Below, in pieces: positions 15,560 through 45,703 of a stretch of 64,000 nucleotides of DNA; the first letter of the stretch is position 1; every line of letters begins with the position of its first letter. The stretch is taken from contig MNRL01000010.1 in NCBI GenBank assembly GCA_001915925.1, forward strand, positions 6,140-70,139, in the 5' to 3' direction. The DNA is from Clostridium sp. CAG:354_28_25. Its GTDB lineage: Bacteria; Bacillota; Clostridia; TANB77; CAG-508. The translations under genes were made by a program, and so were the position numbers. The notes under the pieces are model-generated. The model saw only the letters and a list, made by a program, of their open reading frames with translations. It did no database searches and was not told the origin of the DNA.

Positions 15560-18500
15560 TTAAATTTTCCTCCAATCCGTGTTTAAAATAATTAGTATTT
15601 ATATTAGACCAATTAAAATTAATTTCTTTTAATACCTTAGTTGTATAAGGACTAGATACTTTGATATTGCTTGCTTCGTGTTTACTAGTTAATAATTTAT
15701 ATAAGTAAGAAGATAAATTAATATCTTTTGTGGAAGCTTCTAAATCTTGTAATGAATTATCAGTAGTAAATTGTATGTTAAAACCTAAATTATTTAATAG
15801 GTTAACAATTTCTTGTAAAGTTAATTCATTTTGATTATATATATGATATACATTATATTTATTATCATTTTGTAGAATAGATACTATTAAACTAGCACAT
15901 TCATCAACAGGACTTATATTAAATGTTTTATCTTTTAACTCTAGAGGAATTTTTTTTGCTTTTATAATAAATTGTATTAAATTAAAAAATAAGTTTTCCT
16001 CTAAGTTGTGTTGGAATATACCATCATAACTTCTCCAAGTAATATTTCCTAAACGGAATATTGTTATAGGAAGACCTTTTTGGTTTTCTTCTAATAATAG
16101 CTTTTCTGCCTCAAATTTAGTTTTTATATAAATATTTTCACTAATATCTTGGTTAACAAATAAATCCTTTTCTGTAAAAGCGCATGAACCATTAGGATCA
16201 TTACTGCCTGCAACTGAAAGCGTAGAAATATGTACTAATTGGCAGTTTGGAATATCTTTACAGACTGCTATTAAATTTTTTACACTTAATACATTTGTTT
16301 TTTCAAAAACAGCATAATCTCCTAGATGTTTAACAGTTGCTGCAGCATTAATTATACATTGTATATTTGTACACAACTCATTATATGCATTATAAATAAG
16401 ACCTAAGTGTTCTTTAGTAAAGTCACCATTAACAACTATAATTCTATTATTAAAATAATGATCTAATTTATCTTTAAAGTAGTATTGTAGTCTTTCTTTT
16501 AATCTGTTAGTTGAACTTTCTAAAGATTCTCCTCTTACTAAACAATATATCGTATAATTTGTTTTTTCTAATAATTCATAAAGAATATGAGCACCTAAAA
16601 ATCCTGTAGCACCAGTTAATAAGATATTACCATTTATATAACTTGGAGAGCTTTTTTCTATTTGAAAAGTTTCGTAATCTACTGTATTAATTGTACTAGA
16701 AATAGGTGATTGTGTATTTAGCGCATATTTTTCTAATAATTTAATTGTAGGATATCTATAAAAATCTTGTGCAGATAATTTTATATCATATTTTGCAGCT
16801 TCTACAGAAATCTTTATAGAATCTAGTGAATCTCCTCCTAAAGCAAAGAAATTATCTTTTATTCCAATCTTAGATTTTCCTAAAACCTTTTCCCATATAG
16901 AACACAATTTTTTTTCTATATCGTTATTAGGAGCATCATAATTTTCTACATCTAAATCATTTATATGTTCTAATAATTTTTTCCTATCTATCTTTCCATT
17001 TGTATTTAAAGGAAATTCATCTAAAAACTCAAACTGATTTGGAATCATATAATGAGGCAACTTATTAACTAGTTTATTTCTAAATGATTCTTGATCTATT
17101 ATTGATGAATCTATAATTACAAATGCAACTAGAGTAGAATTATCAGAAGATTCTTTATTTAATATAATTGTACAATTTTTTACACCGTGAATATTTTTTA
17201 TCGTATTTTCAATTTCTCCTAAATCAATTCTATAACCTCTATATTTTATTTGATTATCATTTCTACCCACAAACATTATAGAGCCATCTGGAAGCCATTT
17301 TGCAGAATCTCCAGTTCTATATATTCTATTTTTTAAATCAAAAGATGCTTTTGTTTTTTCTGGATTGTTTAAATACCCATTACCAACACATTCACCTTGT
17401 ACATAGATTTCGCCAACTTTACCAATTGGAACTAACCTTTTTAATTTATCTAAAATAAATATTTTAGAGTTACCAATTGGACTTCCAATAGGTGTTATGT
17501 TATTAGGTGGCAGAGTATTTTTAAATTTATACATTGTACAACAAATAGTAGTTTCAGATGGTCCATAACCATTTACAATTTTCATGTTAGGATTTAGGTT
17601 ATAAAAATTAGATAGAGTAGAAGCTTTAATAGGTTCCACACCAACCAATATTTTATTTAATGCTAATTTAGGATATTTAGCTAATTCCTCATATATAGAA
17701 TGCAACATAGCAGGTGGGAAGTATGCAAATGTAATATTATTAACCGAGATATATTTAGCAAGTTCCACGATGCTACTATTATTTAAATCTTTATATAAGT
17801 GTAGATTGCCACCAAAAGTAAGCGCTGTGAAAATTTCTGCCATACTAACATCAAAACAAATATTAGTTACAGATAAAAATTGGTCATCAGCTTTAATTGA
17901 ATCATCTAAATAATGCTTAAAAGAGTATACAAAATTAATAATATTATTATGTGATTGCATAGTTCCTTTTGGCTTTCCTGTAGAACCAGAAGTGTAAATG
18001 ATATAGGCATTGTCAGTTGGTAATACTTTAGGAAATTTAGCAATAGCTGGGTAATCCTTTAATTTATTAATGTATAATCTTAGACATTTTATATTTAAGC
18101 TTTCAAAATATTGTTCAGTAATTAATATTTTGCTATTACTATTTTCTAAGATATATTCAATTCGTTCATTAGGATAATCAGGGTAAATTGCTAAGAAAGC
18201 AGCTCCAGCTTTTAAAATTCCTAATAATGAACAAATAAGGTTAATATCTTTATTTTTAAATAAAACTGCTACACAATCTCCTTTTTCTACGCCATTTTCG
18301 ATAAGGTTAGTAGCAATCTTAGTACTATTAGCAATTAATTCTTTATAAGTTATATGTTCGCCATTATATGTAACTGCTGTATTATTAGGATACTTACTTG
18401 CAACAGCTTCAATTAACTCATGAATTCCTATGTTTTTAGGATGAGAGATATTAGAATTATTAAATTTATTTATTATAAGTTCTTCTTCTTTCTCGCAGAT

Positions 18501-19805
18501 AATACTTATATCTTTTAGTAAGATAGAAGGATTCTCTAATACATGTAGAGTCATATTCATAATTCTTGAATGAATTTTATCTATTTGTTCTTCCGAAAAT
18601 TTAGAAATTTTATAATCATAATAAATGTTAATTATTCCAGTATCATCTAAATCATAAAAATGTATTTGTAAGGTATCAGAACAATTATTATTAAAAGACC
18701 AGTTTGTATGAAATTTTATATCAGCTACAGTATTATCTATTCTAGCATTTTGGTAAGATATGGCTAAATCATATAAATTATATGAGATATTATATTTGGT
18801 TTTTAAATCTTCTAGTAATGTAGAATATGAATATTTTTGATGTCTAAAGAATTTCATTTGGTTAGTTAAAACTTCTCTTAAGAAGTCTGTAAAAGTCTCT
18901 TCATAATTCATTTTCATAAAAAAGGCTTGCGTACTTACAAATATTCCACAGGTATTTTTTTCTTTAAAATTGGTTCTATTTAAGATAGGTGTTCCAATTG
19001 TAGAAAAATCATTATTATTAATGCGTGCTAAATATAGTGAATATATAGCCATAAAAAATGTATAAAGAGAACAGTTATGTTCTTTGCAAAAAGCATCCAA
19101 TTTTGAATACAATTCTTTATCTAGAATATATATTTTTCTTTTTGCAGTTGTATCTATAATTTTTTCTTTTTGGTCGGAAATTAAAGATGGCTCTGGCTCA
19201 GAGTCAAAGAAAGTATTCCAAAATTCTTTATCTTTTTGGAATCTTGGAGTATGTAAATAATCTTGTTCACTTTTTGCAAAGTCTAGATAGGAATTATTAG
19301 CAGAATCATCAATAATTTCACCAGCTATTAATTTTGAATAAATATTCATTACTTGGTCTACGAATAAACTCATAGTCCAAGCATCACAAATAATATGGTG
19401 AAAAGTTACGATTAATCCCCCTGTATTATCTTCAAACTTGAAAAGAGTAACCCAAAATAGTTTAGAATCAAAAAAATTAAATTTTTTATTAACAGCCTGT
19501 AAGCTAAGGTCTTCTAATTCTTGTTTATCTTTAATAAAAACTCGTCTTATAGTAAAAGGTTCATATGGAGTTATGTACTGCTTTGGTTTGTTATTTTCCA
19601 TATGAATACGAATTCTAATTGCGTCATTCTTTTTTACAAAAATATTTAAAGCTTTTTCTAAAAAATCTAAATTTACCGGTTCATCAATAATAATGTTACC
19701 ACCAATTAGATTAACACTACTACCAGATGCATATTCTTCGGTTAAGTAAATAGATTTTTGTGGAATAGTTAAATCATAAAATTTAAAATTATTCATAAAA
19801 ATCAC
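15528..19805 (-). CDS. Single-module non-ribosomal peptide synthetase, domain order C-A-T-R (condensation, adenylation, thiolation, terminal NAD(P)H-dependent thioester reductase)
   Basis: C domain HHIICDAWTM (HHxxxD). A-domain cores LAYIIYTSGSTGKPKG, FDVSMAEIF, NGYGPSETT, GELYVQGECVGNGYLN, YRTGD, GRNDNQIKYRGYRIDLGEIE. PCP FFALGGDSL. R domain LTGATGFLGAHILYELL (GxxGxxG) and YIKTK (YxxxK). Confidence 0.85.
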   Translation of the reverse strand: MIFMNNFKFYDLTIPQKSIYLTEEYASGSSVNLIGGNIIIDEPVNLDFLEKALNIFVKKNDAIRIRIHMENNKPKQYITPYEPFTIRRVFIKDKQELEDLSLQAVNKKFNFFDSKLFWVTLFKFEDNTGGLIVTFHHIICDAWTMSLFVDQVMNIYSKLIAGEIIDDSANNSYLDFAKSEQDYLHTPRFQKDKEFWNTFFDSEPEPSLISDQKEKIIDTTAKRKIYILDKELYSKLDAFCKEHNCSLYTFFMAIYSLYLARINNNDFSTIGTPILNRTNFKEKNTCGIFVSTQAFFMKMNYEETFTDFLREVLTNQMKFFRHQKYSYSTLLEDLKTKYNISYNLYDLAISYQNARIDNTVADIKFHTNWSFNNNCSDTLQIHFYDLDDTGIINIYYDYKISKFSEEQIDKIHSRIMNMTLHVLENPSILLKDISIICEKEEELIINKFNNSNISHPKNIGIHELIEAVASKYPNNTAVTYNGEHITYKELIANSTKIATNLIENGVEKGDCVAVLFKNKDINLICSLLGILKAGAAFLAIYPDYPNERIEYILENSNSKILITEQYFESLNIKCLRLYINKLKDYPAIAKFPKVLPTDNAYIIYTSGSTGKPKGTMQSHNNIINFVYSFKHYLDDSIKADDQFLSVTNICFDVSMAEIFTALTFGGNLHLYKDLNNSSIVELAKYISVNNITFAYFPPAMLHSIYEELAKYPKLALNKILVGVEPIKASTLSNFYNLNPNMKIVNGYGPSETTICCTMYKFKNTLPPNNITPIGSPIGNSKIFILDKLKRLVPIGKVGEIYVQGECVGNGYLNNPEKTKASFDLKNRIYRTGDSAKWLPDGSIMFVGRNDNQIKYRGYRIDLGEIENTIKNIHGVKNCTIILNKESSDNSTLVAFVIIDSSIIDQESFRNKLVNKLPHYMIPNQFEFLDEFPLNTNGKIDRKKLLEHINDLDVENYDAPNNDIEKKLCSIWEKVLGKSKIGIKDNFFALGGDSLDSIKISVEAAKYDIKLSAQDFYRYPTIKLLEKYALNTQSPISSTINTVDYETFQIEKSSPSYINGNILLTGATGFLGAHILYELLEKTNYTIYCLVRGESLESSTNRLKERLQYYFKDKLDHYFNNRIIVVNGDFTKEHLGLIYNAYNELCTNIQCIINAAATVKHLGDYAVFEKTNVLSVKNLIAVCKDIPNCQLVHISTLSVAGSNDPNGSCAFTEKDLFVNQDISENIYIKTKFEAEKLLLEENQKGLPITIFRLGNITWRSYDGIFQHNLEENLFFNLIQFIIKAKKIPLELKDKTFNISPVDECASLIVSILQNDNKYNVYHIYNQNELTLQEIVNLLNNLGFNIQFTTDNSLQDLEASTKDINLSSYLYKLLTSKHEASNIKVSSPYTTKVLKEINFNWSNINTNYFKHGLEENLNEKNFGQKLG

Positions 19806-31731: not shown

Positions 31732-34700
31732 ATGGACGAGTTAGAAGTCTTTGATAAAATAAAAATTGGTTTAGCTTCTGATGAAAAAATAAGAGAATGG
31801 TCAAAAGGTGAAGTTAAAAAACCAGAAACTATAAACTACAGAACATTAAAACCAGAAAAAGATGGTCTATTCTGCGAAAGAATATTTGGACCTACAAAAG
31901 ACTGGGAATGTCACTGTGGAAAATATAAAAGAGTTAGATATAAAGGAATCGTTTGTGATAGATGTGGTGTAGAAGTTACAAAATCAAAAGTAAGACGTGA
32001 AAGAATGGGACACATCGAACTTGCAGCACCAATTGCACACATTTGGTTCTTTAAAGGAATACCTAGCAGAATAGCATTAATGCTAGATATTTCTCCAAGA
32101 AATCTAGAAAGAGTTATATATTTTGCATCATATGTAGTAACAGATAAAGGAACATCAGGCTTAATGGAAGCACAAGTTTTAAATGAAAGAGAATATCATG
32201 AAGCTGTAGAAAAATACGGTAAAGATTCATTTAAAGCAGAAATGGGTGCCGGAGCATTAAGAAAATTACTAGAAAAAATAGATCTAGAAAAATTATCTGC
32301 AAGCTTAAAGAAAGAAATTTCTAAAGCAAGTGAGCAAAAGAAAGTAAAATTAGTTAAGAGATTAGATACAGTAGAAGCATTCAGACTATCTGGAAACAGA
32401 CCAGAATGGATGATTATGAATGTTGTACCTGTAATTCCACCAGATTTAAGACCAATGGTTCAATTAGATGGTGGTAGATTTGCAACATCTGATTTAAATG
32501 ACTTATATAGAAGAGTTATAAACAGAAACAACAGATTAAAAAGATTATTAGAATTAGGTGCACCAGAGATAATTGTAAGAAACGAAAAAAGAATGTTACA
32601 AGAATCTGTAGATGCATTAATAGATAATGGAAGACGTGGTAGACCAGTAACAGGTGCTGGTAATAGACCATTAAAATCATTATCAGACTTATTAAAAGGA
32701 AAACAAGGTAGATTCCGTCAAAACTTACTAGGAAAAAGAGTTGACTATTCTGGACGTTCAGTTATCGTTGTAGGTCCAGAACTTAAGATATACCAATGTG
32801 GTCTTCCAAAAGAAATGGCTGTAGAATTATTCAAACCATTTGTTATGAAAGAATTAGTAGGAAGAGGAATTGCACATAATATTAAAAATGCAAAAAGAAT
32901 GGTAGAAAAATTAAGTCCAGAAGTATGGGAAATATTAGAGGATGTTATAAAAGATCATCCAGTAATGTTAAACCGTGCTCCTACATTACACAGACTTGGT
33001 ATTCAAGCATTCGAGCCAGTTTTAGTAGAAGGTAGAGCGATAAAATTACACCCATTAGTTTGTACACCATTTAATGCTGACTTCGACGGTGACCAAATGG
33101 CTATTCACTTACCATTATCACCAGAGGCACAAGCAGAAGCTAGATTTTTAATGTTATCTGTAAACAACTTATTAAAACCACAAGATGGTAAACCAGTTAC
33201 AGTCCCAACACTAGATATGGTTCTTGGAAGTTATTACCTAACAATGGCCTTAGATGGCGAAAAAGGTGAAGGTATGTACTTTAAAGATAAAGATGAAGCT
33301 ATAATGGCTTACGAAAACCATGATGTTGGAATACATGCAAAAGTATATGTAAGATTTAGCAAAGAAGTAGACGGAATAGTTAAAACAAAGAAAGTACAAA
33401 CAACAGTAGGAAGAATTATTTATAATGAAGGAATTCCACAAGATTTAGGATATGTAGATAGAACAGATCCAGAACACGAATTCGACTTAGAGATAAATTT
33501 CCCAGTTATAAAGAAAAACTTAGGAGATATAGTAAACAGATGTATTAATGTACATGGGTTATCTAAATCTGCAGAAGTTTTAGACTATATTAAAGCAACA
33601 GGATTTAAATATTCTACACTTGCAGGGGTTACATTCTCTGCAGCAGATGTTAAAGTACCAGCAGCAAAAGCTGATATATTAGCAAAAGCCGAAGAGCAAG
33701 TAGAACAAATAAGAAAACAATATAAACGTGGTTTAATAACAGACGAAGAAAGATACAATGCTGTTATTAACGTATGGGATAAAGCAACAAATGATGTTAC
33801 AGAAGCAATGAAAGAAAACTTTGATGACTTAAACCCAATATACATGATGGTTCAATCTGGAGCCCGTGGTAATATGAACCAATTAAGACAAATCGCAGGT
33901 ATGAGAGGTCTTATGGCAAGTACTACAGGTAGAGCAGTAGAAATTCCTATTAAATCATCATTCGCAGAAGGTCTAGATGCCTTAGAGTACTTCATTTCTG
34001 CACATGGTGCTAGAAAAGGACTTTCTGATACAGCTTTAAGAACAGCTGACTCTGGATATTTAACAAGAAGATTAGTTGATGTATCTCAAGACATTATCGT
34101 AAGAGAAGAAGACTGCGGAAGCCATGACGGAATTGTTTTATGTGATATAAAAGAAGGAAACCAAATAATCGAAACTTTAAGAGAAAGATTATTAGGAAGA
34201 TTTGTTATAGAAGATTTAAAAGATCCTAATACAGGAGAAATTTTAGTAGATACTAATACAATGATAACAGATGCAATAGCAGACAAAATAGTAGCTGCTG
34301 GAATTGAAAAAGTAAAAGTACGTTCTGTTTTAGGATGTAGATCAAAACAAGGTGTATGTCGTAAATGCTATGGTATGGGATTAGCAAGAAAAGACTTAGT
34401 AAATATAGGAGAAGCAGTAGGTGTTATTGCAGCACAATCAATTGGTGAGCCTGGTACACAGCTTACTATGAGAACTATCCACTCTGGTGGTGTTGCAGGT
34501 GTTGCAGATATCACACAAGGTCTTCCTAGAGTTGAAGAGTTATTCGAAGCTAGAAAACCAAAGGGACTTGCAATTATGGCAGAAATATCTGGTAAAGTTA
34601 AAGTTGTAGAAGACAAGAAAAAGAAAGAAGTTGTTATTACTTCTAAAGATGATTCTAAGACTTATACAATACCATTTGGTGCTAAACTAAAAGTTATGGA

Positions 34701-35265
34701 TGGTGACGAAATAGAATCAGGTGACCCAATAACTACAGGTTCATTAAATCCAAATGATATACTAAAAGTAAAAGGAGCAGAGGGAGTATATACTTACCTT
34801 GTACAAGAGGTACAAAAAGTTTATAGAAACCAAGGTGTTGATATAAACGACAAACATATCGAAGTTATCGGAAGACAAATGATTAAGAAAGTTAGAATAG
34901 AAGATAATGGAGATACAGACTTATTCCCAGGTTCTTTAGTAAATGTATATGACCTAGAAGAAGTAAACGAAAAAGCTATAGCAGAAGGAAAGAGACCTGC
35001 AACAGCAAAACGTGTATTATTAGGAATAACAAAAGCATCATTAGCTACAGAAAGTTTCTTATCTGCAGCATCATTCCAAGAAACAACAAGAGTATTAACA
35101 GAAGCTGCAATAAAAGGTAAGACAGATGAGCTTATGGGGTTAAAAGAAAATGTTATGATAGGTAAATTAATACCAGCCGGTACAGGAATGGATAGATATA
35201 AAAATCTAAAAATTCATGTAGAAGGTCAAGATGAGGAAGAACAAAAAGAAGAGCAAAAAGCTTAA
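31732..35265 (+). CDS. rpoC: DNA-directed RNA polymerase subunit beta'
   Basis: Zinc-binding CHCGKYK...CDRCGVEV, catalytic [12 protein letters not shown], trigger loop/bridge regions. 1177 aa. Confidence 0.95.
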
Positions 35266-35455: not shown

Positions 35456-38400
35456 ATGAAGTTATTAAACAAAAAATTAATGTTACTAATGATGGGGATA
35501 ATAGTAATGCTACTTGCATTGTTAACAGGAAAAGTGCAAGCTGCATCACAAGAGTTTGGATTACAAGAATATAGAAAACCAGTAGGAAGTACACAATATG
35601 GTTATAAAGTAAGTGATAAATATGTATGGAAAATAGTAACATATTCTGGTAGTGCAATAAATTATGATAGAACACTTTATTGTTTAAAAGCAGAACAAGG
35701 TTTCTATACTTCAGAACCAGGAGTTTTTAAAGAAACATATAATTTATCATATGACTTTATGAACAAAAATAGTATGAATCCATTACCTGTACCATCACAA
35801 TATTATAATCAAATTGTATGGATTTTAAATCATTCATATATACCAAGTGCATCAACAGCTAGTACAGATAAAGCAACATTATTACAAAATGCAGGAATAA
35901 GTGGAAATAGTGAGTTATCAGATGATGATATAGATGTTGTACAACAATTAGCATTATGGTATTTTACAAATTATGATGATTCAACATATCACAAAGATTT
36001 TGAAAATCAAGCATCTTTCCAAACTGTATTGCAATCAACTAAAACTAGTGGGGGAACAAGTGCATACCAAGCAATCGAAGATATTAATCAAACTAGATAT
36101 GACCAAATGGATAAATTGTTTGTATATCTTGTAGAAAATGCAAAAAAAGCAACAGCAAGTTCTAACAGTACTTCATCACCAATAGCTATGGGAAATACTA
36201 CCCCAACAGTAGAAGTAAGTGGAAGCAATTATATAGTAGGACCATTTAAAATAGATAAAAACAATGACACTCCATATACTATAAACTTTAGTATAACAGA
36301 CCAAAGTGGTAAAAGTTTAGCCGGAAAATATACTTTATTAGACTCAAATAAGAGTCAAACAAGCCAAACTTTAGCACAATTAGTTGGAAGTAATTTTTAT
36401 TTAAGAATACCAATTAGTACAGTAAATTCAGAAAATATTACAAGTCTAAGATTTTCTATGAATGGAAATTATACTATAACAACAGCTACATATTGGACTA
36501 AATCTGGAGATAGTACAGTACAACCAATAGTAGAATTGAGTAGAACACCAAAAGCTTTTAGTGGTAACAAAGAAGTAACATTTCCAAAAGAAGGTTCATA
36601 TAATTTAAAACTTATAAAAGTAGAACAAGGTAATACAACAAACAAATTACAAGGTGCAACATTTAGAATTACAAGTCCAAATGGAACGGTAACAGAAACA
36701 ACAAGCTCAAATGGTGAGATTAATGTAGGACCAATTACTATAAATACACCTGGAACAGATACAATAACAATAGAAGAAACACAAGCTCCAGATGGATATG
36801 AAAAAGTAATAACAGCACCTATAAATGTACAAGTAACAAAAACACTATCAAGTAATACATATACTATGTCAAATGCTGTAATAACTAATACCCAGACGGG
36901 ATCTAGTATAAGTGTAAGTGGAAGTACGATAACAGTAACGGTAGAAAATAAATTAATACCAAAAGACAGCGAATATAATTTAAAACTTGTAAAGGTGGAA
37001 CAAGGAAATACAAGTAAAAAGTTACAAGGGGCAGAATTTAGAATCAATTCACCAACTGGTGAAGTAACACAAACAACAAATGCAAGTGGAGAAATAAACA
37101 TAGGTCAAATTGCAGTAACAGCTACAGGAACAGACACAATAACAATAGAAGAAACAAAAGCACCAGATGGCTACGAAAAAATAATAACAGCACCAATAAC
37201 AGTACAAGTAACAAAAGTATTCGAGAATAATACATATAAAATGTCAACTGCACAAATAACAAATGCACAAACAGGAGCAAGTTTAACATTATCAGGAAAT
37301 ACAATAACAGTAACAGTAGAGAATAAATTAATTCCAAAAACAAGCGAATATAACCTAAAACTTGTAAAGGTAGAAGAAGGAACAAGTAATAAATTAGAAG
37401 GTGCAGAATTTAAAATAAATTCACCAAATGGAGAAGTAACAAAAACAACAAATGCAAGTGGAGAAATAAATATAGGACCAATTGCAGTAACAGCTACAGG
37501 AACAGACACGATAACAATAGAAGAGACAAAAGCTCCAGCAGGATATGAAAAGATAATAACAGCACCAATAACAGTGCAAGTAACAAAAGTATTCGAAAAT
37601 AATACATATAAAATGTCAGATGCGGTAATAACAAATGCACAAAATGGAGCAGATATAAGCTTAAGCGGAAATACAATAACAGTAACAGTAGAAAACAAAG
37701 CAAAATATTTTGATTTAGCATTAAGAAAATATATAACACAAGTAAATGGAGAAAATGTTGCAAATACTAGAGTACCAGTTATAGATACAACATCGCTTAC
37801 AACTGGAACAACAGCAAGTTATAAGCATAGAAAAGATCCAGTTGCAGTAACAACAGGTGACAAAGTAATATACAATCTTACGATATATAATGAAGGACAA
37901 AAACCAGGTAGAGCAACAAAGTTACAAGACCAATTACCAACAGGCTTAGTATTTAATAGAGTAGTGTCTGGAAATTTTGAATTGGATTCTTATAGTGAAA
38001 CAGATAATCTATTAAAATTAAGAAGAACATCAAATACAGATAATCTTGATGCATATAATGGAACTACATTAGATTCAGAAACAATACAAATAGAATGCAC
38101 AGTAACAGCAGTCCCAACATATAAAGAGCAAATCTTAACAAATGTCGCATGGATTTCAGAAGAATATGATGCAGAATCAAATGTAACAATAACAAACGAG
38201 GAAAATGCAGATAGGGATTCTGTTCCAGGAACACATCCAGATGTAAATAAAGATAATATGGAAGATTATACTGGAAATAATAATCAAGAAGATTTAACAG
38301 ATGATGATTATTACTTCAAAGGTCAAGAAGATGATGATGACTTCGAAAAATTAAAAGTAGTATATTTTGACTTAGCATTAAGAAAATTTATAACAGGTAA

Positions 38401-40231
38401 AAATGATACAGCATTAACAGGTAGAGAACCACAAGTAGATGTAACAAACTTAGCAGATGGAACATCTACAACAGCTACATATAATCATCCAAAAAATCCT
38501 ATAGATATGCAAAGAGGAGATATCGTAATATATACAATAAGAGTATATAATGAAGGTTCAATGGATGGATATGCAAATGAAATAACAGATTATTTACCAG
38601 AAGAATTAGAATTTTTACCAGACCATGAAATAAACCAAGAATATGAATGGCAAGTATCTAGTGATGGAAGACATGTTACAACAGATTATTTATCAAAAGC
38701 TAAAGAAACATCATCAAGACAAAACTTATTAAAAGCTTTTGATGGAACAACATTGGATTATAAAGATGTAAAGATAACATGTAAAATAAAAGATACTGCA
38801 GAAGTTGGTAAAAAGCTAACAAACTTAGCAGAAATAACAGAATCTAAAGATTCAGATGGAAATGATGTAGTAGACAGAGATTCTGAAACAGATAATGTAG
38901 AAGTACCAACAGACGAAGATTTACCAAATTATAAAGATGACGAAATAGATAAAGACTATGTACCTGGTCAAGAAGATGATGATGACTTCGAAAAGGTAAA
39001 AGTAGTATATTTCGATTTAGCATTAAGAAAATTTATAACAGCAGTAGATGATACAGAAATAACAAACAGAATACCACAACTAAGTATTGGTGAAGATGGA
39101 AATATAGATTATAATCATACAAAAGAGCCTGTAGAAGTAGAAAATGGTAATATAGTAACATATACATTAAGAATTTATAATGAAGGTATGATGGCAGGTT
39201 ATGCAAGCAGGGTAAAAGATGATGTGCCAGATGGATTGGAATTCTTGCCAGACAACGAGATAAACCAAGAATATAGATGGGTATTATCAGAAGATGGAAC
39301 AAGTATAGAGACCGATTATCTATCTAAAGAGCAAGAACAAACAGAAGGTGCAAACTTAATAAAAGCATTTGATCCAGAATTAGGAATAACGGATACAAAC
39401 CCAGACTATAGAGATTTAAAAATAGCATTTAGAGTAACAGAACCAAACACATCAGATAGAATATTAGTAAATACAGCAGAAATTTCAGATGACAGAGATG
39501 AAAACAATGATCCAGTAGACGATATAGATTCTACCCCAGATAACAATAACGAGTGGAACGAAGAAGATGATTTAGACAAAGAATTTGTAAAAGTTAAATA
39601 CTTTGATTTAGCATTAAAGAAATGGGTAAGTAGAGCAATTGTTACAAACCAAGATGGTTCACAAAACATAATAGAAACAGGACATACAGGAGATGAAGAT
39701 CCAGAGCCACCAGCAAAAGTAGATTTAGGAAGACAAGACATTAATAAAGTAACAGTAAAATTTGAATTCCAAATTAAAATAACAAATGAAGGTGAAATTG
39801 CTGGATATGCAACAGAAGTAACAGACTATATTCCAGAAGGCTTAAAGTTTATACAAGAAGACAACCCATTATGGTATCCAAGAGAACCATTAAACGGAAG
39901 AGAAAGAGTTGGAACACAACAATTAGCAGATACATTACTACAACCAGGAGAAAGCGCAACAATATCAATCCTATTAACATGGATAAATGATCCAAATAAT
40001 ATGGGATTAAAAACAAACATAGCAGAAATAAGCCAAGATGATAATGATAGTGATACACCAGATATAGACTCAACACCAGATAACTTTACAGATGGTGAAG
40101 ACGATATAGATGATGCACCAGTAATGTTAACAGTAGCACTAGGTGATACACAAATATATATAGGTTTAGGATTTGTAATAGTAGCAATGTTAACAGGTGG
40201 AATTTGGGCAATAAAAAGATATGTTTTATAG
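35456..40231 (+). CDS. Giant surface adhesin (1591 aa): signal peptide, N-terminal thioester-domain (TED)-like module, three tandem Cna B-type domains, four DUF11 repeats with acidic linkers, C-terminal TM anchor (KRYVL tail)
   Basis: Signal MKLLNKKLMLLMMGIIVMLLALLTGKVQA. Conserved Cys and Gln motifs TLYCLKAE and DVVQQLALWYFTN (see finding). Cna B repeats ...TITIEETQAPDGYEKVITAP.... DUF11 repeats YFDLALRKFIT...GD.V.YT..IYNEG...V.D.LP.GLEF. C-terminus LGFVIVAMLTGGIWAI-KRYVL. Confidence 0.75.
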   Translation: MKLLNKKLMLLMMGIIVMLLALLTGKVQAASQEFGLQEYRKPVGSTQYGYKVSDKYVWKIVTYSGSAINYDRTLYCLKAEQGFYTSEPGVFKETYNLSYDFMNKNSMNPLPVPSQYYNQIVWILNHSYIPSASTASTDKATLLQNAGISGNSELSDDDIDVVQQLALWYFTNYDDSTYHKDFENQASFQTVLQSTKTSGGTSAYQAIEDINQTRYDQMDKLFVYLVENAKKATASSNSTSSPIAMGNTTPTVEVSGSNYIVGPFKIDKNNDTPYTINFSITDQSGKSLAGKYTLLDSNKSQTSQTLAQLVGSNFYLRIPISTVNSENITSLRFSMNGNYTITTATYWTKSGDSTVQPIVELSRTPKAFSGNKEVTFPKEGSYNLKLIKVEQGNTTNKLQGATFRITSPNGTVTETTSSNGEINVGPITINTPGTDTITIEETQAPDGYEKVITAPINVQVTKTLSSNTYTMSNAVITNTQTGSSISVSGSTITVTVENKLIPKDSEYNLKLVKVEQGNTSKKLQGAEFRINSPTGEVTQTTNASGEINIGQIAVTATGTDTITIEETKAPDGYEKIITAPITVQVTKVFENNTYKMSTAQITNAQTGASLTLSGNTITVTVENKLIPKTSEYNLKLVKVEEGTSNKLEGAEFKINSPNGEVTKTTNASGEINIGPIAVTATGTDTITIEETKAPAGYEKIITAPITVQVTKVFENNTYKMSDAVITNAQNGADISLSGNTITVTVENKAKYFDLALRKYITQVNGENVANTRVPVIDTTSLTTGTTASYKHRKDPVAVTTGDKVIYNLTIYNEGQKPGRATKLQDQLPTGLVFNRVVSGNFELDSYSETDNLLKLRRTSNTDNLDAYNGTTLDSETIQIECTVTAVPTYKEQILTNVAWISEEYDAESNVTITNEENADRDSVPGTHPDVNKDNMEDYTGNNNQEDLTDDDYYFKGQEDDDDFEKLKVVYFDLALRKFITGKNDTALTGREPQVDVTNLADGTSTTATYNHPKNPIDMQRGDIVIYTIRVYNEGSMDGYANEITDYLPEELEFLPDHEINQEYEWQVSSDGRHVTTDYLSKAKETSSRQNLLKAFDGTTLDYKDVKITCKIKDTAEVGKKLTNLAEITESKDSDGNDVVDRDSETDNVEVPTDEDLPNYKDDEIDKDYVPGQEDDDDFEKVKVVYFDLALRKFITAVDDTEITNRIPQLSIGEDGNIDYNHTKEPVEVENGNIVTYTLRIYNEGMMAGYASRVKDDVPDGLEFLPDNEINQEYRWVLSEDGTSIETDYLSKEQEQTEGANLIKAFDPELGITDTNPDYRDLKIAFRVTEPNTSDRILVNTAEISDDRDENNDPVDDIDSTPDNNNEWNEEDDLDKEFVKVKYFDLALKKWVSRAIVTNQDGSQNIIETGHTGDEDPEPPAKVDLGRQDINKVTVKFEFQIKITNEGEIAGYATEVTDYIPEGLKFIQEDNPLWYPREPLNGRERVGTQQLADTLLQPGESATISILLTWINDPNNMGLKTNIAEISQDDNDSDTPDIDSTPDNFTDGEDDIDDAPVMLTVALGDTQIYIGLGFVIVAMLTGGIWAIKRYVL
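36596..37700 (+). repeat. Three in-frame tandem direct repeats of about 375 bp (125 aa Cna B-type domain) inside the adhesin gene
   Basis: Units start at about 36596, 36971 and 37346 (S/EYNLKL[IV]KVE[QE]G...TVENKLIPK). Units 2 and 3 are over 90% identical at the nucleotide level. Confidence 0.8.
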
Positions 40232-40583: not shown

Positions 40584-43500
40584 ATGAAACTTATTAAGAA
40601 AATAGCTGTAAGCATCATAGTTATGCTTTTAGCATTAGCTATGGGAACATCAGTATTTGCAGCTACAAATCCAGTTACATTTGGACTAAGTGAATATAGA
40701 AGAGAAACAAACGGAAAACAATATGGATATAGAATAAACAATGGAAATAAAAAAGTTTGGAAAGTTATTGTGTACGAAAATGACGGGACAACAATGAATT
40801 TTGACAATACAATATACTGTTTAAAAGCCGAAAAAGGTTTTTACACAGCAACACCAAATTCATTTAAACAAACATATGATAAAATGGTAGACTTTGCAGA
40901 TAAATCAAATTTAGTACCTGCAATTTTCGAAAACGATGACTATTATTATGCCGCTACATGGATTTTAGACCATGCATATATACCATATTATGCAAAATCA
41001 GGAGATTCAGTAGAAGTACAAGCTCAAAAAACTGAGCAAGCTGCACAAGATAGAGAAGATCTATTAAACGCATCTGGGATGAGCGATTCATTAAAACAAG
41101 AATTAACAGATGATGATATAGATGTAGTACAACAAATGGCATTATGGTATTTTACAAATACAAAAGCAAATGAGAATGCAGATATATATCATGTAGATTA
41201 TGCAGGAGAGCCATCATTCCAACCTGTAGCTATAGCTGAAAAAGGAGTAGGTTCTTATACAACAATAGAAGATGTTAACCAAACAAGAGCTGATGCAATG
41301 GAAAAACTATATCAATATATGGTAAAAACAGCTAAAAGTACAGAAAACATTGAATATTACAAAACACATAATGGAAAAGTAGAAGAACCAATAACATTAG
41401 CTACAGAAGTTAACCCAACAGTAGAATTAGATGGTGGAAATTATATAGTAGGACCATATAAAATAAATAAAAATAATGATTTACCATTCGAATTAAATGC
41501 AAAATTCACAGACCAAGATGGAACAGACTTAAATGGTAAATATACATTATTAAATTCAAGTAAACAAGCAGTATCACAAGGAACAACAATAAAAGATTTA
41601 GTAGGACAAAGTTTCTATATTTCAATCCCATCATCAAATATAGATGATATAACAAAAATAAAATTTAGTTATACAGGTTCATATAGAACTTCATCAAAAG
41701 GATTCTGGACAACAACACAAAATCCAGATACTGTACAACCATTAGTTGCAGTTGAAAAACAAGAAACTCCATTAAGTGGAGAAAAAGAAGTTGGAGTTGC
41801 AAAAAGAGAATTTGACTTATCATTAAGAAAATTTATTTCTGAAGTAAATGGAAAAGAAATAAATAGAGAGCCAACAGTAGATGTATCAAATTTAAATAAA
41901 AACATTGATGGAGCAAAAGTTACAACAGCTACTTATAACCATAACAAAAAACCAGTAGCAGTAAAACCAGGAGATATAGTTACATATACAATAAGAGTAT
42001 ATAATGAAGGTGAATTGGATGGTTATGTAGGAGAAATTACAGATTATTTACCAGCAGAATTAGAATTTATAAATGATGTAGAAAATTATCCAGAAGAAAC
42101 AGACTTTAATGCAGGTTATGGTTGGAAAATTGATGCAAGTAATAATAGAGTAATAAAAACAAATAAACTTGCTTACTCATCAGAAGCAGCAGACAGAGAT
42201 CAAAATGCAAGCAATTTAATAAAAGCATATAATGGAACAACATTAGATTACAAAGAAGTTAAAGTAAAATGTAAAGTAAAGAACTCTACAGAATCATTAA
42301 AGAAGATTACAAATTTAGCTCAAATTACACAAGAAACAGACAGTAAAGGTGGAGCAGTAACAGATAGGGACTCTGTACCAAATGGAAACTTTACATTACC
42401 ATCAGATACAGATTTACCAACATATAAAGATGACGAAATAAATTCTGGAAAACAATATATACCAGGACAAGAAGATGATGATGATTTTGAAAAAGTTATT
42501 ATTCAAGAATTTGATTTAGCATTAAGAAAATTTATATCAGGAAAAAATGGAACAACATTAATAGGTAGAGAGCCATCTGTAGATGTAACAAATTTAGCAA
42601 ATGGAACAGCTACAACAGCAACATATAATCATCCAAAGAAAGCTGTGGATATGGCAAGAGGAGATGTTGTAGAATACACAATAAGAGTATATAATGAAGG
42701 CTCAATAGATGGATATGCAAATAAAATAGTAGATAAATTACCAGCAGAATTAGAGTTCTTACCAGAAAACGAAACAAATATACAATATGGATGGCAAGTT
42801 TCAGAAGATGGAAGAACAGTAACAACAGATTATTTATCAGAAGCAAGAGGAGGCATTCCAGTTTCTACAGCAACAACTTCAAATCAAAATTTAATAAAAG
42901 CATTTGATGGAACAACATTATCATATAAAGATGTAAAAATAGTATGTAAAGTAAAAGATACTGCAGAATTTGGTAAGAAATTAACAAATTTAGCAGAGAT
43001 AACAGAAGCAAAAGATTCTGAAGGAAATGATGTAATAGATAGAGATTCTGAAACAAATAATATGCAAGTTCCAAGTGATGAAGACTTACCAGCATATAAA
43101 GATGACGAAATAAACAACGAATATGTACCAGGACAAGAAGACGATGATGACTTCGAAAAAGTTAGAGTAGTATATTTTGACTTAGCATTAAGAAAATTTA
43201 TTACTGCAGTTGATGACCAAGAAGTAACTACGAGAGTTCCACAATTAAGTATTGGAGAAGATGGAAATATTAAATATGACCATACAAAAGATCCTGTTGA
43301 AGTAGAAAACGGAGATGTAGTTACATATACAATAAGAATATATAATGAAGGATTAATAGATGGACATGCAACAGAAGTAAAAGATGATATTCCAGATGGA
43401 CTAAAATTCTTACCAGATAACCCTATAAATAGAGAGTATAGATGGCAAGAATCGGAAGATGGACAAAGTGTAACAACAGATTACTTAGCTAAGGCACAAG

Positions 43501-44396
43501 AAGAAAATGACGGAGATAATCTAATAAAAGCATATGACCCAGAAAAAGGACTAACAGAAAACAATCCTGATTACAGAGATGTAAAAATCGCATTCCAAGT
43601 AACAGAACCAAATACATCAGATAGAATATTAGTAAATACAGCAGAAATTGCTGATGATAGTGATAGTTCTGGGGATCCAATTGAGGATATAGATTCTACT
43701 CCAGATAACAACAATGAGTGGAACGAAGAAGACGACTTAGATAAAGAATTTGTAAAAGTTAAATACTTCGATTTAGCCCTAAAAAAATGGGTAAGTAAAG
43801 CAATCATAATAGATGCAGACGGAACACAGACTGTACAAGAAACAGGACATACAGGTGACGAAGATCCAGAACCACCAGCAAAAGTAGATTTAGGAAGAAG
43901 AGATATAAACAAAGTAACAGTAAAATTCGAATTCCAAATCAAAATAACAAACGAAGGTGAAATCGCTGGATATGCAAAAGAAATAACAGATTATATCCCA
44001 GAAGGTTTAAGATTTGTACAAGAAGATAACCCGGATTGGTATACAAGAGAGCCTTTAAATGGTAAAGAAAGAGTTGCAACAAAATTATTAGAAAATACAT
44101 TATTACAACCAGGAGAAAGTGCAACAGTATCAATCATCTTAACATGGATAAATGGACAAGATAATATGGGCTTAAAAACAAATATTGCAGAAATAAGCCA
44201 AGATTATAATGATAGTCATACACCAGACATAGACTCTGTGCCAGACAACTTTAAAGAAGATGAAGATGATATAGATGATGCTCCAGTAATGCTTACAGTA
44301 GCACTAGGTGATGCAAAATTATATATCGGAATAGCAACACTAGTAGTTATAGCACTAGGTGGAGGAGTATTCATAATTAAGAAATATGTAATTTAA
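40584..44396 (+). CDS. Paralogous giant surface adhesin (1270 aa): signal peptide, TED-like N-terminal module, four DUF11 repeats, C-terminal TM anchor (KKYVI tail). No Cna B tandem array.
   Basis: Signal MKLIKKIAVSIIVMLLALAMGTSVFA. Motifs TIYCLKAE and DVVQQMALWYFTN. The 3' ~1.9 kb is about 85-90% identical to the 3' end of the 35456..40231 gene. Confidence 0.75.
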   Translation: MKLIKKIAVSIIVMLLALAMGTSVFAATNPVTFGLSEYRRETNGKQYGYRINNGNKKVWKVIVYENDGTTMNFDNTIYCLKAEKGFYTATPNSFKQTYDKMVDFADKSNLVPAIFENDDYYYAATWILDHAYIPYYAKSGDSVEVQAQKTEQAAQDREDLLNASGMSDSLKQELTDDDIDVVQQMALWYFTNTKANENADIYHVDYAGEPSFQPVAIAEKGVGSYTTIEDVNQTRADAMEKLYQYMVKTAKSTENIEYYKTHNGKVEEPITLATEVNPTVELDGGNYIVGPYKINKNNDLPFELNAKFTDQDGTDLNGKYTLLNSSKQAVSQGTTIKDLVGQSFYISIPSSNIDDITKIKFSYTGSYRTSSKGFWTTTQNPDTVQPLVAVEKQETPLSGEKEVGVAKREFDLSLRKFISEVNGKEINREPTVDVSNLNKNIDGAKVTTATYNHNKKPVAVKPGDIVTYTIRVYNEGELDGYVGEITDYLPAELEFINDVENYPEETDFNAGYGWKIDASNNRVIKTNKLAYSSEAADRDQNASNLIKAYNGTTLDYKEVKVKCKVKNSTESLKKITNLAQITQETDSKGGAVTDRDSVPNGNFTLPSDTDLPTYKDDEINSGKQYIPGQEDDDDFEKVIIQEFDLALRKFISGKNGTTLIGREPSVDVTNLANGTATTATYNHPKKAVDMARGDVVEYTIRVYNEGSIDGYANKIVDKLPAELEFLPENETNIQYGWQVSEDGRTVTTDYLSEARGGIPVSTATTSNQNLIKAFDGTTLSYKDVKIVCKVKDTAEFGKKLTNLAEITEAKDSEGNDVIDRDSETNNMQVPSDEDLPAYKDDEINNEYVPGQEDDDDFEKVRVVYFDLALRKFITAVDDQEVTTRVPQLSIGEDGNIKYDHTKDPVEVENGDVVTYTIRIYNEGLIDGHATEVKDDIPDGLKFLPDNPINREYRWQESEDGQSVTTDYLAKAQEENDGDNLIKAYDPEKGLTENNPDYRDVKIAFQVTEPNTSDRILVNTAEIADDSDSSGDPIEDIDSTPDNNNEWNEEDDLDKEFVKVKYFDLALKKWVSKAIIIDADGTQTVQETGHTGDEDPEPPAKVDLGRRDINKVTVKFEFQIKITNEGEIAGYAKEITDYIPEGLRFVQEDNPDWYTREPLNGKERVATKLLENTLLQPGESATVSIILTWINGQDNMGLKTNIAEISQDYNDSHTPDIDSVPDNFKEDEDDIDDAPVMLTVALGDAKLYIGIATLVVIALGGGVFIIKKYVI

Positions 44397-44860: not shown

Positions 44861-45703
44861 ATGGAAGAAAATAAAACATTAGAAGAAGTATGTACTGAAT
44901 ATAAGCTTTCAGAAGACGAACGCAACGAAATAGGAAACAAAATAAATGCGATTATGTTAGCAGGAAAGAAAACAAGTGAGCAACCTATAGCAATAATAGA
45001 TATTGCACCTCCAGGTTCTGGAAAAACAGGTTTAAACGGATATGCCTGTGCACAGTTTAAGGATAATAATGCTGTTGTCATTAATAGTGATGAATTAAAA
45101 CCATTTCATCCTAGAATAGATGAATTAGCAAAAAAATATCCAGAATATTATACAAAAGTAACTAATCAAGAAAGTAATTTTTGGACAGACAATTTATTTG
45201 ATGTTGCAGTAGCTAGTAGGTATAATGTTATTTTTGAGGGAACAGGTAGAAACTTAAAACTATTAACAAAGATGATGAGCAAAATGCATGGGTACAAAAT
45301 AGTTGTAAGAGGAATGGCCGTTAATGAACTAAATTGCTTGATGTCAATAATTGAAAGATATGAAGGACAAGTAGAACAAAAAGGCTGGGGAAGGTTGGTA
45401 ATGGAAGATCATTTTTATAAAGCATATGATGAAATGCTAGAAAATATCCAAGCGATTGAAGAATCTGGAATGGCAGATATTGTTGAAGTTTATACAAGAA
45501 GTGACAATCCAAGTAGACCACTAAGAATATATAGTAGTAGAAATAGAGAATTTAAAGATGCAAGAACAGCTGTAATTGTTGGAAGAGAAAGAGACAGAAA
45601 AAGTGCAGAACAATATTATGAAGAAAAATTTAGTAAAAGAGGAACAAAACCAACAAAGTTTCCAGAAGAAAAAGAACTTCTAGAAAAAATAACAGAAATA
45701 TGA
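44861..45703 (+). CDS. Zeta-toxin family P-loop kinase (PezT/zeta-like; the family phosphorylates UDP-GlcNAc)
   Basis: Walker A IAPPGSGKTGL. Blocks VINSDELKPFHP (zeta VIDNDTFKQQHP), NVIFEGTGRN (NLVIEGTGRT), GYKIVVRGMAVNELNCLMSIIERYE ([25 protein letters not shown]). Confidence 0.75.
   Translation: MEENKTLEEVCTEYKLSEDERNEIGNKINAIMLAGKKTSEQPIAIIDIAPPGSGKTGLNGYACAQFKDNNAVVINSDELKPFHPRIDELAKKYPEYYTKVTNQESNFWTDNLFDVAVASRYNVIFEGTGRNLKLLTKMMSKMHGYKIVVRGMAVNELNCLMSIIERYEGQVEQKGWGRLVMEDHFYKAYDEMLENIQAIEESGMADIVEVYTRSDNPSRPLRIYSSRNREFKDARTAVIVGRERDRKSAEQYYEEKFSKRGTKPTKFPEEKELLEKITEI

Follow-up and report, generated by a model that had tools for sequence, protein, structure and literature searches.

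Among bacterial adhesins, covalent binding of the target is, to our knowledge, known only for the thioester adhesins, and nearly all work on these has concerned pathogens and plasmids of Bacilli. Class I thioester domains (TEDs) are represented by SfbI, FbaB, Cpa (2XID) and CpTIE of C. perfringens (Walden et al., 2015, PMC4450167) and Class II TEDs by BaTIE (6FWV), EfmTIE86-TED (6FWY), SaTIE-TED (6FX6) and TIEpLS20 (Miller et al., 2018, PMC6194298; Gago-Cordoba et al., 2021, PMC8092201). In TEDs the bond is formed by the Gln of a weak ΦQζΦΦ motif, which is carried by a later β-strand, and a helical TQxxΦW motif adjoins the bond, although its Gln and Trp are dispensable (PMC6194298, PMC4450167). 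The thioester Gln of SaTIE has been defined experimentally as Gln467 (PMC6194298), whereas its TQ-motif Gln, counted from the 6FX6 alignment, is residue 350.

The stretch of DNA analysed here (the window, 64 kb of contig MNRL01000010.1, assembly GCA_001915925.1) comes from an uncultured, low-GC gut Clostridium and encodes the paralogous proteins P1 and P2 (Table 1). P1 consists of a signal peptide, a TED, three CnaB/SpaA repeats, four DUF11 domains and a C-terminal transmembrane (TM) tail, while P2 has a signal peptide, a TED, four DUF11 domains and a tail of the P1 type but no CnaB repeats. A hydrophobic N-terminal leader was found across homologues. From predicted structures and analogy with described adhesins, P1 and P2 are probably (about 0.75) tandem fibrillar adhesins, each with a Class II-type TED in which a thioester is predicted between Cys76 and Gln356 (P1) or between Cys79 and Gln385 (P2).

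Table 1. Features of the P1 and P2 genes, in window coordinates; functional roles are predicted.
Feature	Position	Strand	Evidence
P1, 1591-aa fibrillar adhesin ORF	35456..40231	+	ORF list, translation, Pfam
P1 Sec-type signal peptide, aa 1-29, ...GKVQA/AS	35456..35542	+	direct sequence reading
P1 thioester domain, Class II type, aa 30-~375	35543..36580	+	Pfam, AF2, Foldseek
P1 Cys76 codon, YCLK = [YFL]CΦζ motif, predicted thioester Cys	35681..35683	+	conservation, AF2, hhalign
P1 QQLALW, aa 163-168, accessory helical TQxxΦW motif	35942..35959	+	helix at model residues 128-143; literature
P1 Gln356 codon, TVQPIV = ΦQζΦΦ, predicted thioester Gln	36521..36523	+	conservation, AF2 hairpin, SaTIE alignment
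P1 three 125-aa CnaB/SpaA-type repeats, aa 380-749	36593..37702	+	Pfam SpaA PF17802, repeat boundaries
P1 four DUF11 (CLIPPER) domains, aa 750-1545	37703..40090	+	Pfam DUF11, TIGR01451, boundaries
P1 C-terminal tail, GEDDIDDAPVMLTVALGD + 20-aa hydrophobic helix + KRYVL	40091..40228	+	translation, family-wide conservation
P2, 1270-aa paralogue of P1	40584..44396	+	ORF list, translation, Pfam, repeat boundaries
P2 signal peptide, aa 1-26, ...SVFA/AT	40584..40661	+	direct sequence reading
P2 thioester domain, Class II type, aa 27-~405	40662..41798	+	Pfam, AF2, Foldseek
P2 Cys79 codon, YCLK, predicted thioester Cys	40818..40820	+	translation
P2 QQMALW, aa 183-188, accessory TQxxΦW-type helix motif	41130..41147	+	helix at model residues 150-165
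P2 Gln385 codon, TVQPLV, predicted thioester Gln	41736..41738	+	conservation, AF2
P2 four DUF11 (CLIPPER) domains, aa 408-1225	41805..44258	+	Pfam, NCBIfam, boundaries
P2 C-terminal tail, DEDDIDDAPVMLTVALGD + TM + KKYVI	44259..44393	+	translation

By Pfam and by predicted fold, both N-terminal modules are thioester domains, as the earlier note had proposed from motifs. Scores against Pfam TED PF08341 were 42.6 bits (E = 8.5e-11) for P1 and 32.0 bits (E = 1.8e-7) for P2, above the curated (gathering) cut-off of 22 bits, and 44.7 and 30.7 bits, respectively, for the isolated modules; the score for NCBIfam TQXA_dom, 17.7 bits, was under its cut-off of 30.4. The structure prediction that had been suggested as a test of the TED fold gave confident AF2 models (pLDDT 91.6 and pTM 0.85 for P1, 90.5 and 0.86 for P2), the thioester bond itself being outside what AF2 predicts. 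In Foldseek comparisons of these models with the PDB, significance (E 1e-11 to 8e-9) was reached only by two Class II TEDs, 6FWY and 6FWV, with E values of 1.5e-11 and 2e-10 for the P1 model and 5e-11 and 5e-9 for the P2 model. Only these two structures were matched with probability 1.0, over alignments of approximately 350-387 columns, and the matches ranked next were noise (E ~1e-3). TM-scores to solved TEDs were low (0.25-0.35, rmsd 9-13 Å), which indicates that rigid superposition fails for the two lobes or for the insertions.

At the sequence level, phmmer with the P1 module and the family profiles A2 and A3 returned spurious armadillo and CRABP2 matches and no TED from PDB sequences, no sequence-level link to solved TEDs was obtained by phmmer or hmmsearch against the PDB, and tblastn of the module against plasmids yielded nothing relevant. 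The failure of PDB sequence searches to find a TED is what would be expected if the motifs resembled those of TEDs by chance in an unrelated module, but that explanation was rejected as having a negligible probability, given Pfam scores above the curated cut-off in both proteins and Foldseek matches (E 1e-11, probability 1.0) of two independently predicted models to two Class II structures.

The topology of the models fits the published description of Class II TEDs and follows the same order, i.e., a [YFL]CΦζ strand, a TQxxΦW-type helix, an inserted β-sandwich and a terminal hairpin that bears a Gln. The Cys occupies the end of a β-strand (model residues 45-48 in P1 and 50-53 in P2), QQxALW is on a helix, and about 100 residues of β-sandwich (model strands 215-321 in P1 and 244-350 in P2) separate the helix bundle, with its last long helix, from the long terminal hairpin. 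As in Class II TEDs, the domain is N-terminal, following the signal peptide, atop an isopeptide-type stalk. In contrast with those TEDs, to which sequence identity is just 10-13%, the Cys-Gln spacing is 280 residues in P1 and 306 in P2 as opposed to 171-204, extra helices and strands are present, Gln replaces Thr at the first position of the TQ motif, Pro fills the ζ position of the Gln motif (VQP), DUF11 makes up most of the stalk, LPXTG is lacking, and the proteins belong to uncultured gut Clostridia instead of Bacilli. With Class I TEDs, P1 and P2 have in common the Pfam family PF08341, the Cys and TQxxΦW motifs and the proposed chemistry of covalent adhesion, but Class I lacks the β-sandwich insert seen in both models; Class I Cpa matched the P2 model with a Foldseek E of 0.016 and was not among the 50 matches listed for P1.

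The Cys and QQ motifs on which the earlier note was based are indeed kept in both paralogues. In translation, P1 contains TLYCLKAEQ with Cys76 and DIDVVQQLALWYFTN with Gln163 and Gln164 (35942-35947), while P2 contains TIYCLKAEK with Cys79 and DIDVVQQMALWYFTN with Gln183 and Gln184 (41130-41135), and each Cys is the sole cysteine of its N-terminal module. The spacing between Cys and these Gln residues, 87-88 residues in P1 and 104-105 in P2, agrees fairly with the 90-100 estimated before. A third motif, TVQP[IL]V, was overlooked in that account; it lies beyond the coordinates considered there and is as invariant as the other two. In a six-frame regex scan of the whole window, YCLKAE, QQxALW and TVQP[IL]V were confined to the P1 and P2 ORFs. 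Conservation was assessed over 142 sequences, namely P1, P2 and 140 family representatives clustered at 50% identity. Cys was present in 140 of 141, the QQ pair in 138-139 of 142 and Trp at position 168 in all 142. Two relatives (P0010 and P0123) carried Ser instead of Cys. The Gln of TVQP[IL]V was kept in 139 of 140, and the pair Gln356-Pro357 was essentially invariant over the 140 representatives.

These sequence comparisons and models make Gln356 of P1 and Gln385 of P2 the likely partners of the Cys. In the P1 model, the terminal β-hairpin (strands 302-321 and 330-347) bears Gln356 at its tip, in the turn two residues ahead of the DSSP strand and outside the strand itself, and in the P2 model Gln385 is in the loop right before the last strand (residues 361-378). 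The earlier note had instead assigned the bond to a Gln of DIDVVQQ[LM]ALW, within a compact domain of about 230 residues. The near invariance of the QQ pair would agree with that assignment, and closeness to the Cys would seem to as well, since the equivalent Gln of solved TEDs adjoins the Cys (PMC6194298); the distance between Cys and the QQ Gln is a non-discriminating test because a TQ-motif Gln also packs against the Cys. What tells the candidates apart is that the bond Gln of described TEDs is elsewhere than in the TQ motif, as in SaTIE, with its thioester at Gln467 rather than Gln350, and that the pLS20 TIE is without any Gln in its TQ motif. Moreover, Gln163 is replaced by Glu in four representatives and Gln164 by Lys or Arg in three, all seven of which keep both Cys and Gln356. 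A bond to Gln163 or Gln164 was accordingly rejected as very improbable. The module limits proposed with it, 35456-36230 (aa 258) and 40584-41330 (aa 249), were also too short, as they cut the module before the β-sandwich insert and the predicted reactive Gln, and the predicted fold of both P1 and P2 reaches about 120 residues past them. With Gln356 and Gln385 as the reactive residues, the domains extend to the limits given in Table 1.

Alignment with TEDs of defined chemistry gave a consistent, though statistically weak, picture. The alignment of the family by hhalign with seven Class II TEDs was colinear from end to end and paired Cys76 with SaTIE Cys296, Gln164 and Trp168 with the TQ..W motif and Gln356 with Gln467, but E values across the hhalign runs (0.03-0.09) were not significant, so that Gln356 aligns only weakly with SaTIE Gln467. 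By MAFFT, SaTIE Gln467 and the modelled Gln256 of pLS20 shared one column. Alignments by hhalign of the A3 profile with pLS20, as a single sequence or a three-sequence profile, were likewise non-significant and chose the same register, GxxFYxxxP followed by Gln 36-41 residues on. A homologue search with the pLS20 TED recovered two relatives only; phmmer of the pLS20 TIE against the PDB gave no match, and the three-sequence profile gave a single, marginal match to SaTIE, which supplied the SaTIE sequence. SaTIE was also recovered from an E. faecalis plasmid, being absent among the features listed for the first 50 kb of pLW1043 (NC_005054). Mean-field DCA of 222 sequences for a contact in the Cys-Gln neighbourhood was dominated by indel columns and gap noise and was discarded.

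By analogy with the TED family, the domain would fold following export, and Cys76 (Cys79 in P2), on a β-strand of the head lobe, would form an internal thioester with Gln356 (Gln385), brought in by the long β-hairpin that returns from the inserted β-sandwich, with loss of ammonia (-17 Da). The QQ[LM]ALW helix would pack on the bond without being part of it, like TQxxΦW in solved TEDs. Attack on the thioester by a nucleophilic amine of the target, typically Lys, would then leave an intermolecular amide to Gln and a free Cys thiol. Thus, the tip domains of P1 and P2 may bond covalently to a target, and adhesion by this route would be covalent and possibly pH-reversible, a dependence on pH having been reported for SfbI. 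It is unlikely that the TED fold is present without a reactive thioester, leaving P1 and P2 as ordinary non-covalent adhesins. The unusual size of the domain and its low TM-scores to solved TEDs point in that direction, as does Ser in place of Cys in P0010 and P0123, which indicates that the Cys can be lost; however, the near invariance of Cys and of Gln-Pro among representatives less than 50% identical is hard to explain without function, and all 12 of the TEDs tested by Walden et al. carried the bond (PMC4450167).

By Pfam and NCBIfam, the stalk below the predicted thioester domains is built of isopeptide-type domains, whose K/E/N and K/D/N triads are judged by motif. The description of a CnaB and DUF11 stalk in both proteins proved correct for DUF11, which occurs four times in each, but by Pfam CnaB/SpaA is limited to P1 (PF17802, E 2e-27, three stretches), where the repeats carry the signatures K...EExxAPxGY...VENK. 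The DUF11 domains of P1, which were matched by Pfam DUF11 and TIGR01451 in four stretches each, open with YFDLAL[RK]K, and the Lys and Asn of the isopeptide triad may plausibly be those of FDLALRK and TN[LI]AEI. Experiments have shown DUF11 to be an isopeptide domain (PMC12617251), and the DUF11/CLIPPER adhesins described in the same work have a similar stalk, in which tandem DUF11 domains link an adhesive tip to a sorting region at the C-terminus. TIE proteins, i.e., sortase-anchored thioester, isopeptide and ester adhesins, resemble P1 and P2 in their isopeptide-type stalk but not in their LPXTG motif. No description of a TED combined with DUF11 and a non-LPXTG tail was found in the literature cited here.

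The statement that P1 and P2 are tail-anchored instead of LPXTG-sorted was borne out as far as LPXTG is concerned, since no LPXTG-like motif was present in either tail, and neither tail was matched by NCBIfam or Pfam models of sorting signals and anchors. The tail is, however, a conserved tripartite signal of the family, x[T/L]G + TM + IKKYV[LI], or more fully an acidic linker, a β-strand-like V[ML]L[ST][IV]x[T/L]G, a 20-residue helix and an IK[KR][YF]V[LI] end. The window clade has TVALG, with Leu for Thr, where relatives show S[IV]xTG. Most family members carry xTG, and the P1 and P2 tails may be processed. One family member passed TIGR01167 (19.8 bits, cut-off 15.9). LPXTG-type signals, including the NCBIfam variants Rumino_NPXTG and GVDTG_CTERM, are similarly tripartite, a short motif with G as its last residue being followed by a hydrophobic helix of about 20 residues and then by a basic C-terminus; the P1 and P2 tails differ in having no Pro and in the conservation of the extreme C-terminus, which is not conserved in ordinary LPXTG tails. 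Neither the 64-kb window nor most of the 20-kb neighbourhoods showed a sortase-like ORF; a clear one was seen beside the gene only at locus L049, and a possible one at L047. From this sequence conservation we tentatively propose, as a possible rather than a probable reading, that the C-terminal module serves uncultured gut Clostridia as a surface-anchoring signal not described before. It may act as a non-LPXTG substrate motif for a divergent enzyme of sortase-like type, the scissile Thr having been switched to Leu in a clade-specific manner, as a signal for some other processing enzyme, or as a true membrane tail anchor, in which case the membrane and not the wall would hold a covalent-binding adhesin. 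Occurrence of the same tail on non-TED surface proteins of the window and of related genomes would, if true, indicate a general sorting system of the lineage. The tail is thus a separate lead on the display of surface proteins in such bacteria.

The heads of P1 and P2 are about 46% identical as opposed to 78% for the final 508 residues, which suggests different specificities on a common stalk and anchor. The target itself might not be a host molecule, and the predicted thioester chemistry could serve adhesion between bacteria or attachment to dietary or mucus particles. This we regard as possible, if less probable than not: TIEpLS20, an adhesin with a Class II TED, acts in the contact between donor and recipient during conjugation (PMC8092201), the organisms are gut commensal MAGs with no known pathogens among them, and related genomes carry several divergent paralogues, at least three loci being found in single MAGs. 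On the other hand, the P1 and P2 genes are chromosomal, immediately downstream of rpoBC, and no conjugation genes were seen among the scanned ORFs of the window.

The tip domains of P1 and P2 are of a known type. Naming the predicted pairs (Cys76-Gln356 and Cys79-Gln385) together with the revised boundaries makes expression constructs and mutants meaningful. The family comprises at least 682 clusters at 50% identity from gut Clostridia, with at least 589 encoding stretches in species-representative genomes, and is fast-evolving, with several paralogues per genome in uncultured gut Clostridia of small genome size. By analogy with described thioester adhesins, so large, rapidly diverging and multiply represented a family suggests that colonisation by covalent adhesion is a common strategy among gut commensals.

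The N-terminal modules of P1 and P2, two adjacent giant surface proteins, are thioester domains (TEDs) with a Class II-type fold. The Pfam TED model (PF08341, curated cut-off 22 bits) matched P1 at 42.6 bits (E 8.5e-11) and P2 at 32.0 bits (E 1.8e-7), in agreement with an earlier note that had proposed TEDs in both; matches to NCBIfam TQXA_dom were sub-threshold only. Neither sequence nor profile searches run directly on the PDB reached a solved TED, and structure prediction, which that note had recommended, was therefore used. Confident AlphaFold2 models were obtained for P1 residues 29-395 (pLDDT 91.6, pTM 0.85, 35-sequence alignment) and P2 residues 27-420 (pLDDT 90.5, pTM 0.86, 37-sequence alignment). 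The only probability-1.0 Foldseek matches of both models in the PDB were Class II TEDs, namely E. faecium TIE86 (6FWY; E 1.5e-11 for P1 and 5.2e-11 for P2) and B. anthracis BaTIE (6FWV; E 2e-10 and 5e-9), aligned over approximately 350-387 columns; the remaining matches began at E ~1e-3.

Features of P1, P2 and other loci in the window
Feature	Coordinates	Strand	Remarks
Third surface protein	843-4763	+	1306 aa; signal peptide, SdrD_B and SpaA domains, no TED
Its tail module	4626-4760
NRPS-like protein	15528-19805	-	Single module: condensation, adenylation, carrier, terminal reductase domains
AMP-binding enzyme	20090-21634	+	Stand-alone; adjoins NRPS-like protein
rpoB	27911-31642		Upstream of P1/P2
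rpoC	31732-35265		Directly upstream of P1/P2 tandem
P1	35456-40231	+	ORF, 1591 aa
P1 TED	about 35543-36580		aa ~30-375
P1 SpaA/CnaB repeats			aa 380-749; three of 125 residues, signatures K...EExxAPxGY...VENK
P1 tail module	40091-40228
P2	40584-44396	+	ORF, 1270 aa
P2 TED	about 40662-41798		aa 27-405
P2 tail module	44259-44393
Zeta-toxin-family ORF	44861-45703	+	Directly downstream of P2; Pfam E 2.8e-32
1817-aa ORF	50942-56395	+	N-terminal hydrophobic segment; no Pfam match at E <= 0.001
493-aa ORF	56450-57931	+	Follows 1817-aa ORF; no Pfam match at E <= 0.001

The cysteine and QQxALW motifs occurred in both paralogues as the earlier note described. Translation placed Cys76 of P1 within TLYCLKAEQ and Gln163/164 within DIDVVQQLALWYFTN, and Cys79 of P2 within TIYCLKAEK and Gln183/184 within DIDVVQQMALWYFTN, each cysteine being the only one in its module. 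In a six-frame regular-expression scan of the whole 64 kb, these motifs were not found outside P1 and P2.

In Class II TEDs, the bond-forming glutamine is supplied by a long β-hairpin that comes back from a β-sandwich insert of ~75 residues, as in the pairs BaTIE Cys71-Gln266, SaTIE Cys296-Gln467 and EfmTIE86 Cys88-Gln292 (PMC6194298); the pair modelled in the pLS20 adhesin TIEpLS20 is Cys68-Gln256 (PMC8092201). The order of elements in the P1 and P2 models was exactly that of Class II TEDs: the cysteine ends a head-lobe strand, QQxALW lies on a helix, and a further helix, ~100 residues of β-sandwich and a long hairpin (model residues 302-321 and 330-347 in P1) follow. The hairpin tip carries TVQPIV (Gln356) in P1 and TVQPLV (Gln385) in P2. 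Among the two window proteins and 140 representatives (relatives clustered at 50% identity), the Cys76 position was conserved in 140/141. The Gln356-Pro357 pair was retained in 139/140, and there only truncated or frameshifted entries deviated. Gln356 in P1 and Gln385 in P2 are thus the likely thioester partners. The earlier note had instead assigned this role to the glutamine of QQxALW, which the TED literature contradicts: the equivalent TQxxΦW, the third of the TED motifs, is helical and adjoins the bond, and its Gln and Trp are dispensable (PMC6194298, PMC4450167). Furthermore, Gln163 was replaced by Glu in four representatives and Gln164 by Lys or Arg in three, all with Cys and Gln356 intact. 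Since the sandwich and hairpin glutamine belong to the domain, each TED reaches the end listed in the table, beyond the modules first delimited, which stop ahead of both elements.

Residue-level comparison was made with seven Class II TEDs, including TIEpLS20 (from plasmid pLS20), SaTIE (taken from a plasmid of E. faecalis that carries an identical copy) and four more encoded on plasmids of Enterococcus, Vagococcus and C. perfringens. MAFFT placed SaTIE Gln467 (GNAQKV) and pLS20 Gln256 (SSYQRL) in one column. With hhalign, the 142-sequence family alignment gave one colinear whole-domain alignment to these TEDs that was not significant by score (E 0.058), in which SaTIE Cys296 was the counterpart of Cys76, the TQ..W motif that of Gln164/Trp168, and Gln467 that of Gln356. 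The same β-sandwich register, GxxFYxxxP and then Gln 36-41 residues on, appeared independently in two further hhalign runs. A DCA attempt on the family gave noise only. In two relatives, P0010 and P0123, Ser replaces the thioester Cys (IYSLKAE / IYSLKAG), and the downstream Gln-Pro is retained in P0123; the heads of these proteins might conceivably form a Ser-Gln oxoester or be inactive.

A word-indexed search found 29 relatives, all metagenomic, and an exhaustive profile search at least 682 representatives (327 below E 1e-30), with the whole N-terminal module of ~430 residues conserved. At least 589 encoding stretches were noted in species-representative genomes, with up to three loci from a single MAG among the matches listed. 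The nearest loci (98-89% TED identity) were in gut MAGs that bear the label uncultured Clostridium or Clostridia; farther ones include circular MAG chromosomes of ~1.6 Mb as well as Candidatus Merdicola (Clostridia incertae sedis). The gene order rpoB-rpoC, TED1, TED2 was kept in a dozen related MAGs (L001-L007, L010-L012, L021, L034), in which identity of the TED1 head fell from 98% to 55% where rpoC was 94-99% identical. The adhesin has therefore diverged far more rapidly than the adjacent housekeeping gene, the pattern expected for a fast-evolving interaction surface.

Homologues of the zeta-toxin ORF occupied the same position in loci L006 and L028; in the window, the ORFs after it are one of 355 aa that has no annotation and one with a PHP domain. 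In L036, L040, L051, L058 and ~20 other distant loci, a recurrent set of three genes lay downstream of the TED gene: the first product (~312 aa) has a TM segment at its N-terminus, the second (~265 aa) is a multi-pass membrane protein, and the third (~316 aa) bears a GGDDF (GGDEF-like) motif. This set, absent from the window's clade, hints at c-di-GMP-linked control.

At the C-terminus, P1 and P2 both carry GEDDIDDAPVMLTVALGD followed by a hydrophobic helix of 20 residues and a final K[RK]YV[LI]; neither contains LPXTG. In the tail module shared by the window and loci L001-L071, an acidic linker leads into V[ML]L[ST][IV]x[T/L]G, after which come a ~20-aa TM helix and IK[KR][YF]V[LI]. Among 92 representatives with a complete tail (83 parsed by the pattern, nine missed), xTG, typically L[ST][IV]xTG, occupied the aligned position in 76 of the parsed and all nine unparsed tails, and xLG in seven tails, including the window's clade. 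The TG/LG divide tracked clades in 79 genome-locus tails: the window's relatives have LG, distant ones TG or sometimes SG. One TG-type tail just passed NCBIfam LPXTG_anchor (TIGR01167; 19.8 bits, cut-off 15.9); the window's tails matched no curated sorting-signal model in NCBIfam or Pfam. Among the neighbourhoods examined, only L049 and perhaps L047 had a sortase-like ORF next to the adhesin gene, and none was found within the 64-kb window. Thus, of the proposal that P1 and P2 are tail-anchored instead of LPXTG-sorted, the absence of LPXTG stands; with a mostly xTG tail family, a membrane tail anchor is possible and a non-canonical sorting signal equally so. The acidic linker and strand of the tail resemble the inter-DUF11 junction EDDDDFEKVxVxYFDLALRK, so that the tail motif may stem from a domain's first strand.

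The third surface protein has the same kind of tail (...VVPFGAN, TM, IKKKVL), and tails of this kind, with VPPFGA or IGIKTGG, also occur on non-TED proteins from related genomes. In L038, an ORF ending ...TRLPQTGENKN... (canonical LPQTG type) lies near a family member with an LSIKTGE tail, so that a single genome encodes both the classical and the variant type of signal.

The stalk, described earlier as CnaB plus DUF11 repeats, contains four DUF11 domains in each protein, following the SpaA/CnaB repeats in P1; CnaB is confined to P1. A Lys-Asp-Asn isopeptide has been found in DUF11 (CLIPPER) by crystallography (PMC12617251). P1 and P2 are mosaic paralogues, with an identity of ~46% for the heads and 78% for the last 508 residues, which suggests head diversification or gene conversion of stalk base and anchor.

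By the mechanism proposed, an internal thioester would form autocatalytically between Cys76 and Gln356 and be attacked by a Lys amine of the target, which may be host, mucus or other bacteria, and the outcome would be covalent attachment, possibly pH-reversible (10.64898/2026.02.05.703941). Pfam already calls P1, P2 and metagenomic relatives TED; the present results establish domain identity, fold class, conserved residues and architecture of P1 and P2. Their TED-plus-isopeptide-stalk architecture is that of the published TIE pattern, from which they are distinguished by the unusually large size of the Class II-type domain, a stalk composed mainly of DUF11 and a tail that lacks LPXTG, and they belong to a host lineage in which such adhesins had not previously been studied.
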